DNA of 63,951 nucleotides, filler included, from an uncultured Methanosarcinales archaeon (GCA_964385185.1; 4 parts of 4 records of this genome joined end to end with filler, not necessarily neighbours in it); one strand, 5' to 3'. Positions 7,597 through 30,208 are shown, counted from the whole stretch's first letter. Translations and numbers: made by a program. The notes: a model not told the origin generated them from the sequence alone.

Positions 7597-9093
7597 TTAT
7601 ATGTTCAATGGCTTTAAGCCAAGGTTTTTTAGTGATTTTAAAATTTCTTCTTCGTCTGCATCTCCTGAAATACTTGTTAAGAGAGCAAGATTTTTTCTTA
7701 ATCCAATATTAGTTCCTTCTGGAGTTTCAATTGGGCATAATCTTCCTAGATGTGTACAGTGCAGTTCTCTCGCTGCGAAATTTTCTTGGGAAGCTGATAA
7801 TGGTGATACAACTCTTTGTAGATGAGACATAGTCTCTAAGAAATTTAATCGTTGAATTCTTTGTGAGATTCCTTTTCTTCCCCCTACCCAATTACCCGTA
7901 GCCATTGCTGAATACATTCTTTGAGTTAACAGTTTGTCTCTGATAATAACTTTGATTGACGGGAACTTTCCTCGTTTTACAATTCTTTGGAAGTTGTATA
8001 ATAAATCTTGAATTAATACTTTTAGATTTACTCTGAAAAGATCTGATAGTAATTCTCCTGCTAGTTTTAGTCTTTTGTTACCGTAATGATCCTTGTCGTC
8101 TAATTTTGTTTTACCAGATTCAGCAACAATAAACTTTTTCATTAATTTACATAAGTTGTGTGCTTTTACCATTCTATCATCACTTGTTAAACCAAGATTT
8201 GGAAGAAGGTATCTGTCTAAGATATCGTGCATTCTCTCAAGTCTAATTTCTTTTGTTTGTGTGATTCCAATTCTTCTTGCAATGTAATCGATAGCTTCTT
8301 CTTGCGTTTTAATTTCAATGTATTCGTATAGATTGATTAGGATTTCATCAAATTGTTTTTTCTCTGAGATGAACTTCATGATGTCTTCATCTTTAAGGAT
8401 TCCCAGAGCTTTGATGATAACAACTAATGGTACTCTTTTTACTCTTGTGAATGAGAGGTAGAAAATTCCATCTTTCAATCGTTCGATTGTATGTGGTATC
8501 TTGAAACTTCCTGATTCTGAGAATAATTTTCCAACATAGGGTGAAGTGGTATGTCCTTTTTCAACTAAGAATTTGTTAGACGCTAAATCTTCAATATCGA
8601 TTAGTACTTTTTCTGTTCCGTTGATAATAAAGTATCCTCCTGGATCATCTGGATCTTCTCCTTTAGAGATAACATCTTCACGACTGAGACCGGATAGATG
8701 ACAGAAGTTTGAATGTAACATCACTGGAATGTTTCCAATCTGTGTAGTAAATGATTCTCTTTGTACTTCGTTAATATGAGCAGAAACTTCGATAAAGACA
8801 GGAGCTGAGTAGGTAATTTTTCTAAGCCGTGCTTCAACAGGGTAGATATCTCTTTTGGATCCATCTGCTTCTGTGATTTCAGGCTTTGTTACCCAGATTT
8901 TGTCTAGTTTGATTTTAAAATCGTCAATATTATGTGGGATAATCGTAGGAATAATTTCTTTGTTTTCTTCAACAATTTTTTGTAGTTCATTTTCTATGAA
9001 GTTGTTAAAACTTCCAATATCTGAATCTACAAAAGACCGTTCTTCAAAGTACTTTTGGATTAAAATTTTTCCTTGATCAAGCATTGATAACAC
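7597..9093 (-). CDS. rpoB2: RNA polymerase subunit B'' (Rpo2N)
   Basis: DPGGYFIINGTEKV, CPIETPEGTNIGL. Confidence 0.98.
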   Translation of the reverse strand: MLSMLDQGKILIQKYFEERSFVDSDIGSFNNFIENELQKIVEENKEIIPTIIPHNIDDFKIKLDKIWVTKPEITEADGSKRDIYPVEARLRKITYSAPVFIEVSAHINEVQRESFTTQIGNIPVMLHSNFCHLSGLSREDVISKGEDPDDPGGYFIINGTEKVLIDIEDLASNKFLVEKGHTTSPYVGKLFSESGSFKIPHTIERLKDGIFYLSFTRVKRVPLVVIIKALGILKDEDIMKFISEKKQFDEILINLYEYIEIKTQEEAIDYIARRIGITQTKEIRLERMHDILDRYLLPNLGLTSDDRMVKAHNLCKLMKKFIVAESGKTKLDDKDHYGNKRLKLAGELLSDLFRVNLKVLIQDLLYNFQRIVKRGKFPSIKVIIRDKLLTQRMYSAMATGNWVGGRKGISQRIQRLNFLETMSHLQRVVSPLSASQENFAARELHCTHLGRLCPIETPEGTNIGLRKNLALLTSISGDADEEEILKSLKNLGLKPLNI

Positions 9094-9319
9094 ACCTATA
9101 GAATATTGTTTCTCCGACGTATGGATTTTGTCGGGTAATTTTGATAATATCTCCTTCTTTTGCTTTTAGATTAGCAATAGAAGCATCTTTAATATTGATT
9201 TTAGGAAGACTGATAGTAGTGATCTTGTAGTTTTCTAGCAGTTTTTCTTTCTCTTTTTCAGAAAGCTTCGCTTGCTTAGGTACAAGATAATGTTTCGTGA
9301 TATCAAATTTTGAGGCCAT
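9077..9319 (-). CDS. rpoH: RNA polymerase subunit H (Rpo5)
   Basis: HYLVPK...LPKI...GDIIKITR...YRCV. Confidence 0.96.
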   Translation of the reverse strand: MASKFDITKHYLVPKQAKLSEKEKEKLLENYKITTISLPKINIKDASIANLKAKEGDIIKITRQNPYVGETIFYRCVINA

Positions 9320-9382: not shown

Positions 9383-9471
9383 CGGGCCGGACGAGATTTG
9401 AACTCGCGACAGCTGGATTAAAAGTCCAGTGCTCTGTTGCCCACATTTGTTCCAGGCTGAGCTACCGGCCC
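9383..9471 (-). tRNA. tRNA-Lys(TTT) with 15-nt D-loop intron (9437-9451)
   Basis: Acceptor GGGCCGG/CCGGCCC, anticodon arm CTGGA-CTTTTAA-TCCAG, T-loop TTCAAAT; removing AACAAATGTGGGCAA restores GCTCAGCCTGGCAGAGC and a 74-nt tRNA. Confidence 0.92.
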
Positions 9472-9475
9472 ATTA

Positions 9476-9623
9476 CGCCCTGGCCGGGAAAATCTCATCC
9501 CCACGAACGTGGTGAATGTTTCGAACCCGGGTCGAAGCCTTACTTCCTGCAATTGAATGCAGTCGACAGGGCTTCATGATAGTTACTGCAGCTTGTCGCT
9601 GTGCCAGACTACACTACCAGGGC
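9476..9623 (-). tRNA. tRNA-Asp(GTC) with three introns (D-loop 9583-9602, anticodon loop 9541-9563, T-loop 9490-9519)
   Basis: Removing 20+23+30 nt gives GCCCTGGTAGTGTAGTCTGGCCTATCATGAAGCCCTGTCGAGGCTTCGACCCGGGTTCGAATCCCGGCCAGGGCG, a typical 75-nt archaeal tRNA-Asp. Confidence 0.92.
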
Positions 9624-9872
9624 GAACGTCAGCAAACCTTCTACTCTTTAATAAACGTCTAATTAGACTCTATTAAGTGTGTAGAAAGATTTTTCTGGCA
9701 TTTAAGAATAGAGTAAAGAGCCTGTTTATAAAGCTTTCTCTTTTGTAACCTAAATTATACTATCTAGAAGAAATCACGTATTTCATGTACGGATTTAGAG
9801 TTTATGAGGTATTGATATATATAAATATTGTGGAGCTGGGTTATAATTTGATGCAAGATTTAGTAACCTTTC

Positions 9873-15470: not shown

Positions 15471-15778
15471 AGCAAGATTTAGATAAGGAAGCAGGTAAGG
15501 TTGTAAAATTAAGTGCTAAAGCTCAAAAAACAATGCTTGAAGAGTATCAGAGATTATTTCAACTTTTCAAAGATACAAAGAAATTTCAGGAGATTTTGCG
15601 ACAATTATTAGTATTAATGCATGCTCAAATTTCTAATTCTGGAAATAAAGAATTATTAGAGATGATTGAACGGGTTGAAGAGGATGTTGACAGAGAAGAT
15701 AGACAAATAAAAAGTCAAGGCATTAGAAAGGCACAACAAAGTAGAATTAAAGGTACTAAATTAAGCTTTAGGAAATAG
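15458..15778 (+). pseudogene. C-terminal fragment of a coiled-coil protein
   Basis: Frame opens after TAA at 15434 with no ATG or promoter space; helical, charged composition. Confidence 0.5.
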
Positions 15779-15930
15779 AAAAGTAGGGCCCAGAACAATG
15801 TCCTGAGCCCTGGATCCCTCCCCCCAGATTACTACGTTAAGTATGAATCCTGCAGGTTAACTAAGTAATGGAATGGTTTATGATGCAATGTGCGAAAGAG
15901 TTAAATACCTAATAAACAGAGAATTAATCA

Positions 15931-16404
15931 ATGGTTAATAATATTTTGATTCAGGAGACTCCCAGTAGTAAAGTAACCATTTATACAGTAGTAAGTACTG
16001 TGATTAATCTGATTATCGGTGTGCTTATATTACTAATAAGTGCCATAGTAATTAAGGGAAAACTTCAAGTTGGAAATTATTTGATTTTTATTGTACCTTC
16101 TTTTGTCGTTATTGGATTGGTCGTAATAATTTTTCTTGTTAAGAGTAATAAATCCTATAATTATTATGTGATGGGAGATGGTGTCAAAAGCATTTATAGT
16201 TTTTTGTCAACTAAAGAATCTATGGCTAAATTCGAAAAAATAACAGATATCCAGATTTCTCAAGGTATGTGGCAAAAAGTTTTTAAAATTTATAGTGTAT
16301 CTTTTCAAACTGCTGGTTCAAATATTTCTGAGGTCGTCTTCCACAACATTGATGATCCTGTAAAGTTGAGGAACCTAGTGAGTAAGAAATTGGGACTAAA
16401 ATGA
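15931..16404 (+). CDS. Membrane protein with bacterial PH (bPH_2, YdbS-like) domain
   Basis: 2 TM segments then FEKITDIQISQGMWQKVFKIYSVSFQTAG. Confidence 0.85.
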   Translation: MVNNILIQETPSSKVTIYTVVSTVINLIIGVLILLISAIVIKGKLQVGNYLIFIVPSFVVIGLVVIIFLVKSNKSYNYYVMGDGVKSIYSFLSTKESMAKFEKITDIQISQGMWQKVFKIYSVSFQTAGSNISEVVFHNIDDPVKLRNLVSKKLGLK

Positions 16405-16928
16405 GTGAACGGTCAATTCAAGCTAGTGGGAAATTCCTAACTTCTATCGTACTCCGACCTTTGAAATTTGATCTTTTGGTATTGTTTGCTAGTACATATT
16501 TTAGTGTGTTTTTGATAAAACCTGATTTGATCACTCATTCATTGTCTTTGGGTTTTCTTATTACAGTACCTTTTTTGATTATGGGCATAGTATATCAAAG
16601 GTTGTTTTTTAAATCGTACCAACAAACTGTCAGTGGGGACAAAATAGTTTTCAGATACGGAGTACTAACAATGAAAGAAAAAATTATTCCCAAATCTAAA
16701 ATTACAGATGTTTCTATTAGCCAAAACTTTTTCGAAAAGAACTTAAATATATTTCGTATTCAGATTAATACTGCTGGATCTCATATAAGGCGTGCAAATT
16801 TTGAGGAACATATAGGGGGATTAGGGGGGCTTCCAAGGTCAGGTATGAAGAGCGAAATTAAATTTGAGGGAGAATTCATCGGTATTACTCGTCCAGAGCA
16901 GATAAAAAAATTGATTGAGAGAAAGTAA
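16401..16928 (+). CDS. Membrane protein with bacterial PH (bPH_2) domain
   Basis: 2 TM segments then YGVLT..EKIIPKSKITDVSISQNFFEK..NI..IQINTAG; ATGA overlap with upstream paralogue. Confidence 0.85.
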   Translation: MSERSIQASGKFLTSIVLRPLKFDLLVLFASTYFSVFLIKPDLITHSLSLGFLITVPFLIMGIVYQRLFFKSYQQTVSGDKIVFRYGVLTMKEKIIPKSKITDVSISQNFFEKNLNIFRIQINTAGSHIRRANFEEHIGGLGGLPRSGMKSEIKFEGEFIGITRPEQIKKLIERK

Positions 16929-17007
16929 TAATTATAAAATTTCTCATTTTTTGGAATCTAAGTCTACTTTGTTTGTAATTTTATATAAGTAATCATTCTT
17001 TTGTAAG

Positions 17008-17039
17008 AAAAAAAAGGCTCAGAACAATGTCCTGAGCCC
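17008..17039 (-). terminator. Hairpin plus U-tract downstream of tRNA-Tyr
   Basis: Minus strand GGCTCAGGAC-ATT-GTTCTGAGCC followed by T8. Confidence 0.6.
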
Positions 17040-17043
17040 TGGA

Positions 17044-17169
17044 TCCCTCCCCCCAGATTCGAACCGGGAACCTTTCGGTCTCAGCTGACTTGGTGTCATT
17101 CAGTGCTTTATACACAGTCTCCAAGCGATTATCTACAGCCGAACGCTCTAGCCATTGAGCTAGGGAGGG
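17044..17169 (-). tRNA. tRNA-Tyr(GTA) with 53-nt anticodon-loop intron (about 17080-17132)
   Basis: CCCTCCC/GGGAGGG acceptor with archaeal C1-G72, TTCGG-CTGTAG[intron]A-CCGAA, TTCGAAT T-loop; 73 nt after splicing. Confidence 0.93.
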
Positions 17170-17259
17170 AATAGTAATTAGTTTATTGAATTGCTTTATA
17201 AAAGTTCTTGTTAAGAAGTTGTGCATTGGGCAAAGAATATGGTAAATAGTATTGAGCAG

Positions 17260-17375
17260 TCACCACTACTACTGGCACACACAGTGTGCAGTAGTGGTGA
17301 AAACAGTATTTCTTTAAGGGCTCGCAGTCGTAAGACTGCGAGAGTGGGCACTCTGTGAGTGCCTCTGTTTTTTTT
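17260..17375 (+). other. Three consecutive hairpins followed by a T-run (candidate ncRNA or palindromic-repeat cluster)
   Basis: TCACCACTACT...AGTAGTGGTGA; CTCGCAGTC-GTAA-GACTGCGAG; GGCACTC-TGT-GAGTGCC; then poly-T. Confidence 0.55.
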
Positions 17376-25871: not shown

Positions 25872-25967
25872 AATATTGTAAATACAGAATTCTTTATATT
25901 GATTTCTAGCATTAATCTCACGACACTTCGAAAACCTTATAAAAAGAATGAAAAACATATATACTAT

Positions 25968-26042
25968 GCCCCTGTAGTGTAGTCCGGCCAATCATTTTGC
26001 CCTCTCACGGCAAAGACTCGGGTTCAAATCCCGACAGAGGCG
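25968..26042 (+). tRNA. tRNA-Glu(CTC), intronless
   Basis: TTGCC-CTCTCAC-GGCAA anticodon arm, TTCAAAT T-loop, upstream TTATAAAA; one C-A mismatch in acceptor stem. Confidence 0.93.
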
Positions 26043-26169
26043 TCTAAGGAATAAGCTAAGCTTATTCCTTAATTCCCACTTCTATCGATTTGAAAAAATA
26101 TACATTATGTTATTTAAAATAACACTCAAGAATATTCTCTAAAAAATTTGAAATAGGAATCACAAACGA

Positions 26170-29750: not shown

Positions 29751-29868
29751 AAAAAACGCCAACGCCCGGAACAACTACACAAGTTAGTTGACCCCTACTT
29801 CGGATTGGAGGATTTCACTTCGTTCAACCCTCTAATGCTCATGAAAAGAAAAAACGCCAACGCCCGGA
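29751..29868. repeat. 20-bp direct repeat of tRNA-Ser 3' end enclosing a 78-bp hairpin insert
   Basis: AAAAAACGCCAACGCCCGGA at 29751-29770 and 29849-29868. Confidence 0.88.
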
Positions 29869-29978
29869 TTTGAACCGGGACATCCGTGAGGAAACAACCG
29901 CTCCTCGCTTCACTCGGACCATTTCAGCCGAGCTGAAACTTTCCAGGGTTGCGCAGTACCAGGTTGTGCCACGTTGGC
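29855..29978 (-). tRNA. tRNA-Ser(GGA) with 40-nt anticodon-loop intron (about 29901-29940)
   Basis: GCCAACG/CGTTGGC acceptor, CAACC-CTGGAA[..]-GGTTG, long variable arm, G73; 84 nt after splicing. Confidence 0.9.
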
Positions 29979-30146
29979 ATAGCTAACGTGGCGACCACAA
30001 ACTCTGTTTGGGTGTATGCCACGTTGGCGAATGGAATGAGACTACGTGGCGACCGTGGATTTTGATCCACGTGTATGCCACGTTGGCGAATGGAATGAGA
30101 CTACGTGGCGACCGTGGATTTTGATCCACGTGTATGCCACGTTGGC
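29979..30146 (-). repeat. Three tandem hairpin units (50, 59, 59 bp), each starting with nt 1-12 of tRNA-Ser
   Basis: TGCCACGTTGGC ends at 29978, 30028, 30087, 30146; units 30029-30087 and 30088-30146 identical. Confidence 0.92.
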
Positions 30147-30208
30147 GTAAAGTTGGAACAAAACTAAGTAATAAAAGAAATAGAAATTGGTTTATAAAGT
30201 TTACCAAT

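Follow-up and report, generated by a model that had tools for sequence, protein, structure and literature searches.

A tRNA-Asp gene interrupted by three small introns beside the RNA polymerase genes of a Woesearchaeota-like archaeon

The window analysed here, a stretch of 63,951 nucleotides with filler included and a G+C content of about 35%, carries genes for a split rpoB (B'' and B'), rpoA', rpoA'', a NusA-like protein, S12, S7, EF-2, EF-1alpha and S10. Its RNA polymerase gene cluster is headed by a pair of tRNA genes, tRNA-Asp(GTC) and tRNA-Lys(UUU), and three further tRNA genes lie elsewhere (Table 1). An earlier note on this DNA had proposed that 9476..9623 encodes a tRNA-Asp with introns in the D-, anticodon- and T-loops. 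This holds for the minus strand and is corroborated by related genomes, and the presence of a genuine tRNA-Asp gene broken by three small archaeal-type introns was confirmed by our analysis.

Table 1. Coordinates of the tRNA genes and of the features around them in the window
Feature	Coordinates	Strand	Length	Description
tRNA-Asp(GTC) gene	9623..9476	-	148 nt	5' end 9623, 3' end 9476
tRNA-Asp exon 1	9603..9623	-	21 nt	Acceptor 5' strand, U8 and A9, D-stem 5' strand, D-loop to position 20
tRNA-Asp intron 1	9583..9602	-	20 nt	D-loop, 20/20a; bulges GC^A and AA^C
tRNA-Asp exon 2	9564..9582	-	19 nt	Remaining D-loop, D-stem 3' strand, G26, anticodon stem 5' strand
tRNA-Asp intron 2	9541..9563	-	23 nt	Canonical 37/38; bulges CG^A and UA^A
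tRNA-Asp exon 3	9520..9540	-	21 nt	A38, anticodon stem 3' strand, 4-nt variable loop, T-stem 5' strand
tRNA-Asp intron 3	9490..9519	-	30 nt	T-loop, 59/60; bulges AA^A and UU^U
tRNA-Asp exon 4	9476..9489	-	14 nt	U60, T-stem 3' strand, acceptor 3' strand, discriminator G73
tRNA-Lys(UUU)	9383..9471	-		4 nt downstream of tRNA-Asp; ARAGORN call after intron removal
tRNA-Lys intron	9451..9437		15 nt	D-loop; central helix with 4/4 pairs
TATA-like box TTTATAAA	9725..9732	-		109 nt upstream of the tRNA-Asp 5' end
5' leader	9625..9702	-		Predicted long imperfect hairpin, arms around UCUUUCUAC / GUAGAAGG
Second TATA-like word	9655..9647			Inside the 5' leader
rpoH-like ORF	9077..9319	-	80 aa	Named from reading of the translation, not from a family scan
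rpoB''	9093..7597	-		Followed by rpoB', rpoA', rpoA''
tRNA-Tyr(GUA)	17040-17170	-		53-nt anticodon-loop intron; found only in ARAGORN intron mode
tRNA-Glu(CUC)	25967-26044			The only uninterrupted tRNA gene in the window
tRNA-Ser(GGA)	29854-29979	-		40-nt anticodon-loop intron (ARAGORN intron mode)

Joined by their coordinates, the four exons give a 75-nt RNA that ARAGORN calls as tRNA-Asp(gtc) with a normal cloverleaf, exactly the product that the earlier note had obtained by cutting at the standard bulge positions. GUC occupies positions 34-36 of this spliced form, between U33 and a purine at 37. The part of the anticodon loop contributed by exon 2 runs from C32 to G37, exon 3 ends with T-loop positions 54-59, and the D-stem 5' strand reads GUGU. 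CCA is not encoded. With three inserts and with its exons in order on one strand, the gene is a multiple-intron gene. The possibility of a split or permuted tRNA gene was also considered and is ruled out, the four exons being contiguous and collinear within the 148 nt.

The interrupted gene is invisible to the scanners that we ran. On the unspliced sequence neither ARAGORN, whether or not intron mode was on, nor the Rfam tRNA model, whether at the gathering threshold or at E<=10, gave a call. ARAGORN also missed 7/7 three-intron and 37/37 two-intron relatives among the matches listed. The warning that standard scanners could overlook this gene is therefore true of the two programs used, ARAGORN and the Rfam tRNA model; tRNAscan-SE 2.0, as described in the available part of PMC8450103, has an iterative search for non-canonical introns. 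The neighbouring tRNA-Lys gene behaves similarly: unspliced, it was not called by ARAGORN and reached 27.3 bits with the Rfam model, below the 29-bit cut-off. Altogether 4/5 tRNA genes of the window are interrupted and 2/5 are invisible to the scanners run here. Annotation by ARAGORN or by a plain covariance model would report a genome without tRNA-Asp and tRNA-Lys(UUU), and tRNA genes missed in this way in small DPANN genomes could be taken for lost ones or for a sign of dependence on a host.

Related genes were collected by scanning a 20-mer of exon 3 against one genome per species, which returned at least 120 loci, 40 of them covered with short flanks only. Exon anchors allowed 80 of 121 sequences (the 120 loci listed plus the window) to be parsed as the same tRNA-Asp type. 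The 41 dropped rows comprised 20 tRNA-Glu genes, 18 directly called tRNA-Asp genes of other lineages and three without a call, two of these being truncated by a contig end. Exon 1 of the window's gene is also present in 79 related genes among the matches listed. When spliced in silico, 80/80 genes (the matches listed and the window) were called as tRNA-Asp(gtc) by ARAGORN, and the mature window tRNA is identical at 67-74 of 75 positions to 56 equal-length relatives among the matches listed, which identifies it as an orthologue of accepted tRNA-Asp genes. The order tRNA-Asp, rpoB'', rpoB' is kept in about 50 loci among those listed.

Among the matches listed, these genes carry inserts nowhere but at the three sites already named; the inserts are 13-168 nt long, and their sequences differ. 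With the window counted, the D-loop site is occupied in 18 of the 80 genes, the 37/38 site in 47 and the T-loop site in 60. All three sites are occupied in 8/80 genes among the matches listed, namely the window's and those of L032, L037, L042, L075, L089, L091 and L102. The remaining combinations, with the same scope, are 37/38 plus T-loop (31/80), T-loop only (17/80), 37/38 only (6/80), D-loop plus T-loop (4/80), D-loop only (4/80) and D-loop plus 37/38 (2/80), while 8/80 genes have no intron and were called directly by ARAGORN. Predicted interruption of tRNA-Asp genes thus turns out to be common in the Woesearchaeota-like lineage to which the window is assigned below. In L090, a record labelled Candidatus Woesearchaeota, the exon-3 word lies in a tRNA-Glu(CUC)-like gene with apparent inserts at 37/38 and in the T-loop, which may mean that a second isotype shares these intron sites.

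Each insert can be drawn in the same way: four bases of the exon are followed by a 3-nt bulge with the 5' cut, then by an intron hairpin, by four intron bases facing those of the exon, by another 3-nt bulge with the 3' cut and finally by a tRNA stem. The bulge pairs that had been read beforehand (GC^A/AA^C, CG^A/TA^A and AA^A/TT^T in DNA letters) are all present exactly so, and the description of the helix between them as an imperfect one of 4 bp was accurate, with 3/4, 3/4 and 2/4 pairs in introns 1, 2 and 3, respectively. The central helix of intron 1 reads U.U, C-G, U-A, G-C. That of intron 2 reads C-G, U-A, G.A, U.G, one of its three pairs being the G.U, and that of intron 3 has two Watson-Crick pairs of four (U.U, U-A, C-G, G.A). 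The bulge geometry of the strict hBHBh' motif, with 3-nt bulges on opposite strands and four positions apart, is found at all three inserts; its central helix of four standard pairs is found at none. In the relaxed form of the motif, the flanking helices h are the D stem (mismatched), the anticodon stem and the T stem, and the h' helices are the inner hairpins of introns 1 (4 bp, CAGC/GCUG), 2 (5 bp) and 3 (5+4 bp, with a GUUC loop), which begin directly 3' of the 5' bulge. Evolutionary support for the relaxed motif comes from the shared site in orthologues, the variable insert and, for intron 1, compensatory changes that preserve pairing.

Folding of the 148-nt precursor gave a minimum free energy (MFE) of -61.0 kcal/mol (z = -4.49), and 0/200 dinucleotide shuffles fold as well. 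This structure retains the acceptor, anticodon and T stems, and every insert forms its own hairpin. Under the nearest-neighbour model the pair probabilities of the central helices are about 0.57 for intron 1, 0.012 for intron 2 and 0.003 for intron 3, so that the central helix is predicted to form only in intron 1. The cloverleaf compatible with the bulge-helix-bulge (BHB) motifs has -47.9 kcal/mol, compared with the -61.0 kcal/mol of the MFE structure, and forcing the full motif costs 13 kcal/mol. As modelled, the three motifs are relaxed BHBs held by their flanking helices rather than textbook ones.

Evidence that the intron 1 helix is maintained came from the 18 D-loop introns among the matches listed. 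Nine genes pair an exon CUG with an intron CAG and eight pair an exon UCG with CGA or CGG, the one exception being L023. Within the same alignment (n = 18, matches listed), 90.4% of the cells are paired and 7/11 pairs have changed on both sides, 3/4 pairs of the central helix showing such double changes. The covariation score, calculated on a structure named by hand, was 0.490 compared with 0.181 for shuffled alignments; 0/500 shuffles scored as high, and sliding the partner strand gave at most 0.133. The outermost central pair is unpaired in 12/18 of these listed genes, and the U.U of the window is therefore the norm. At introns 2 and 3 the exon side hardly varies and leaves little or no covariation to be read.

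Four Watson-Crick pairs make up the T-loop central helix in 31/60 genes among the matches listed, and the helix of the window is the weakest of the 60. These counts are anchored on the junctions; a MAFFT alignment of the 60 T-loop introns was left unused because gaps fell inside its 3' anchor (window, L035, L047 and L072). Only 15/60 of the listed T-loop introns have a helix of at least three pairs directly 3' of the 3-nt 5' bulge, which suggests relaxation on the 5' side in many of these predicted motifs, whereas in the window it is the central helix that departs from the strict form. Because its central helix, at 2/4, is the weakest among the 60 listed, intron 3 could be spliced poorly.

Carried further, that weakness would make the gene a decaying one, a pseudogene or a weakly functional copy whose T-loop intron is no longer excisable and whose role is filled by another tRNA-Asp gene. 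Such an explanation would account for the pair probability of intron 3 given above, and intron-free alleles exist nearby: L079, the closest relative by RpoB'' (77% identity, matches listed), has no intron in its tRNA-Asp. We nevertheless consider it improbable. All four exons are intact and share the near identity to the listed relatives described above, and the spliced form is accepted by ARAGORN with its normal cloverleaf. The bulge spacing is exact, and the T stem and inner hairpin on either side of the weak helix are both strong. Moreover, the candidate for a second gene is missing where we looked, as the exon-3 word is single in the 64-kb window and single per assembly in the at least 120 loci, which all come from different assemblies.

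A second concern is that the gene is rightly identified and one or more junctions are misplaced, for example with the T-loop cut lying one or two bases further 3' (60/61) or with intron 1 shifted by one base, so that the tRNA would keep its length but have another base in the loop. ARAGORN indeed also accepts alternative T-loop deletions as tRNA-Asp (106-136, 106-130 and 105-133 in 0-based script coordinates), and the MFE register in the D region has a 2-nt rather than a 3-nt 3' bulge. The uninterrupted orthologues, however, match each predicted junction, as expected if the cut positions of the earlier note are right. Among the matches listed, U60 is found in 20/20 T-loops without an intron, GA at 37-38 in 25/33 such anticodon loops, and the exact predicted D-loop string in 5/62 such D-loops. 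The alternatives would place an A at 60 or alter the D-loop. In archaea, cleavage of the BHB motif follows the second bulge base, a rule that agrees with the canonical 37/38 site of this gene; the cuts proposed in the earlier note obey it for every insert and agree in register with the helix that covaries in intron 1. These agreements settle the small ambiguities left by brute-force searching (see below), and misplacement of a junction appears, if anything, slightly less probable than decay of the gene.

The brute-force procedure deleted up to three segments with minimal BHB-like features and passed the result to ARAGORN. Applied to the real gene, it recovered the solution of the earlier note, together with other isotypes, in 23 tRNA calls from 679 combinations, and on the tRNA-Ser region it gave many conflicting calls. 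Nothing was found in 17130..17005, a segment that lacks the tRNA-Tyr 5' end (17170 according to ARAGORN). Because the procedure is permissive on its own, the exact junctions of the tRNA-Asp gene rest on the orthologues. That the likeness is due to chance, or that unrelated hairpins such as small mobile repeats entered a dead gene that is never spliced, is very improbable indeed despite this permissiveness, given that 0/200 shuffles of the gene and 0/200 random 148-nt pieces of the window yielded any tRNA, that dozens of genomes use the same sites, their exons being conserved, their inserts variable and exon and intron covarying, and that the place beside the rpo genes is kept.

We are thus left, with high confidence, with the reading that a Woesearchaeota-like DPANN archaeon has at 9623..9476 a functional tRNA-Asp(GUC) gene, interrupted by BHB introns at 20/20a, 37/38 and 59/60. 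Archaeal tRNA splicing proceeds by EndA cleavage, joining of the exons by an RtcB-type ligase and circularisation of the introns. For the gene studied here, transcription would start at the upstream archaeal TATA promoter and would include tRNA-Lys(UUU), as suggested by the 4-nt spacer and by the lack of a TATA word or T-run before the rpoH-like ORF. In the precursor, the two 3-nt bulges of each insert, which can be read directly in the sequence, would be clamped between a tRNA stem and the intron hairpin. EndA would cut after the second nucleotide of each bulge, and the ligase would join the four exons and circularise the introns. RNase P and RNase Z would then trim the ends, and CCA would be added post-transcriptionally since it is not encoded. 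The weak central helices of introns 2 and 3 presumably require an enzyme that tolerates relaxed motifs, and the literature discussed below suggests an alpha4-type EndA with an L3 insertion. The EndA types with a broad substrate range are (alpha-beta)2, epsilon2 and alpha4 bearing the L3 loop. Pfam scans found no tRNA_int_endo domain among the 64 ORFs of the window, and a regular expression for an EndA motif, unvalidated and hence a weak negative, had no match in the 1,569 open frames (120 aa or longer) of the loci and the window.

Both tRNA genes are embedded in an arrangement that recurs in relatives. The downstream tRNA-Lys genes of relatives carry an insert at the same D-loop site in 21/69 cases among the matches listed. 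The TATA-like box upstream of tRNA-Asp is likely the promoter of the tRNA unit, judging from its sequence and position, and a TATA-like word lies 72-162 nt upstream in 65/80 related tRNA-Asp genes among the matches listed. No TATA word or T-run was seen before the rpoH-like ORF (9319..9077), and co-transcription of the tRNA-Asp/tRNA-Lys pair with the polymerase genes is possible. An upstream unit consisting of a TATA-like box, about 25 nt, AUGG and the leader was observed in the window (9625-9735, minus strand) and in L012, L013, L026, L062, L105 and others. The leader of the window folds with -21.3 kcal/mol (z -3.5), and among the matches listed 44/65 leaders have z < -2, with a median of -2.8. 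The arms of its hairpin are conserved as UUCUAC / GUAGAA. A helix named by hand was 78.6% paired with one compensatory pair, a modest covariation; RNAalifold on 18 leaders gave no consensus pairs, and an Rfam search of the leader region gave no match.

The placement of the host was derived from the RNA polymerase genes. The RpoB'' of the window is 58-77% identical to translations of about 50 loci among the matches listed, the best of these being L079, labelled Candidatus Woesearchaeota, with 77% identity. DNA identity in the rpo genes reaches at most about 73% among the matches listed. These RpoB'' matches, together with the shared position of tRNA-Asp beside rpoB'', place the window in a Woesearchaeota-like DPANN archaeon. 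Several of the matching records (L002, L015-L017, L024, L041-L043, L047, L052, L062, L072-L075 and others) are titled 'uncultured Methanosarcinales archaeon'. Many records with this title, among the matches listed, have an RpoB'' 59-75% identical to that of the window and an interrupted tRNA-Asp of the Woesearchaeota type. To judge from these sequences, their titles probably do not reflect lineage.

To follow the introns across the lineage, a FastTree phylogeny of concatenated RpoB'' and RpoB' translations was used (48 rows, midpoint root, 13 unresolved forks), restricted to loci in which RpoB'' and RpoB' each gave a match of 400 aa or longer and whose tRNA-Asp had been parsed. Genes with three introns occupy scattered positions on this tree, and the minimum number of state changes on it is 7 for the D-loop site, 12 for 37/38 and 7 for the T-loop. 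The nearest row to the window is L054, with D-loop and T-loop introns (local support 94), while L079, with the highest RpoB identity to the window among the matches listed, has none in its tRNA-Asp. As reconstructed, the tree shows turnover of the introns, not its direction. A wider generalisation, which we put forward only tentatively and would not yet favour over its opposite, is that the tRNA-Asp gene of Woesearchaeota-like archaea, apparently single-copy, has three fixed slots (20/20a, 37/38 and 59/60) at which BHB introns are repeatedly gained and lost. Should the host EndA truly be alpha4 only, this gene family would form a natural series of substrates running from perfect to very relaxed, with the T-loop intron of the window as the relaxed extreme. 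Such a series, if real, would show how a simple endonuclease gained broad specificity, and that intron turnover is ongoing outside the Crenarchaeota. As a comparative set, the related loci could be used to ask which substrate features matter to a DPANN splicing endonuclease, and whether the introns are of ancient origin or mobile.

Multi-intron tRNA genes and disrupted tRNA genes of DPANN archaea have already been published, and the three-intron tRNA-Asp exemplifies a known phenomenon; knowledge of the splicing mechanism itself is left unchanged by it. According to the available parts of Fujishima and Kanai 2014 (PMC4033280) and of PMC8450103, archaeal tRNA genes with up to three introns are found mostly in Thermoproteales. 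The earlier note had named Thermoproteales and ARMAN as the main sources of such genes. The host lineage indicated by RpoB is neither of the two. Like the multi-intron genes of Thermoproteales (e.g. Pyrobaculum calidifontis), as described in the same parts of these papers, the present gene is collinear, has no more than three BHB-type introns, combines canonical and non-canonical sites, includes relaxed motifs and is missed by ordinary scanners. Unlike them, it belongs to a Woesearchaeota-like DPANN host with a split rpoB and 35% G+C, not to a crenarchaeon. The enzyme expected in Thermoproteales is an (alpha-beta)2 EndA with a crenarchaeal loop, whereas for the present host the literature, in its available parts, suggests alpha4 with L3.

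Closer in lineage are the disrupted tRNA genes of DPANN archaea, the same superphylum, surveyed by Kaneta et al. 2018 (PMC5829648) in one Woesearchaeota and one Pacearchaeota genome. The available part of that paper reports increased tRNA gene disruption in Woesearchaeota together with an alpha4-type EndA bearing an 'L3' loop, and links the rise in multi-intron tRNA genes to EndA insertions. It assigns the epsilon2 type of EndA to ARMAN-2 and alpha4 with L3 to Pacearchaeota, Woesearchaeota and Nanohaloarchaea, and states that scanners left some DPANN tRNA sets incomplete. The available portions of its text and supplement list no individual genes; the three conserved tRNA-Asp sites, their occupancy across about 80 genomes and the covariation between exon and intron come from the present analysis. 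The same source describes the pre-tRNA-Glu(UUC) of Methanopyrus kandleri, a non-crenarchaeal case that likewise has a relaxed intron in the D-loop region in addition to one at 37/38. Its D-loop site, as given there, is 20b/21 rather than the 20/20a found here, and the T-loop intron and the Asp isotype are particular to the present gene. Cleavage of the M. kandleri precursor was shown in vitro according to that source. A description of a conserved three-site tRNA-Asp architecture was not found in the literature covered, which mostly excluded subscription journals.

The other tRNA genes of the window showed several features of their own. The uninterrupted tRNA-Glu(CUC) has, by reading, a C.A mismatch at the fourth acceptor pair and a D-arm like that of the spliced tRNA-Asp. 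The 40-nt intron of tRNA-Ser(GGA) has no obvious bulge-helix-bulge on its 3' side. Directly upstream of this gene, at 30012-30147, lies a 59-nt tandem repeat in 2.3 perfect copies, and every repeat unit begins with a copy of the first 12 tRNA-Ser bases. At tRNA-Tyr(GUA), we found a 54-nt direct repeat (15777-15830 and 17006-17059, 93% identical) that duplicates, 1.2 kb away, the tRNA 3' end together with the hairpin downstream of it, and that brackets two ORFs with bPH_2 domains (15931-16928). Judged by sequence, the two copies resemble the trace left when an element inserts into the 3' end of a tRNA gene. Finally, a G+C-rich double hairpin followed by eight T is found on the plus strand of an intergenic segment at 17312-17370 and could represent a small RNA or a terminator.
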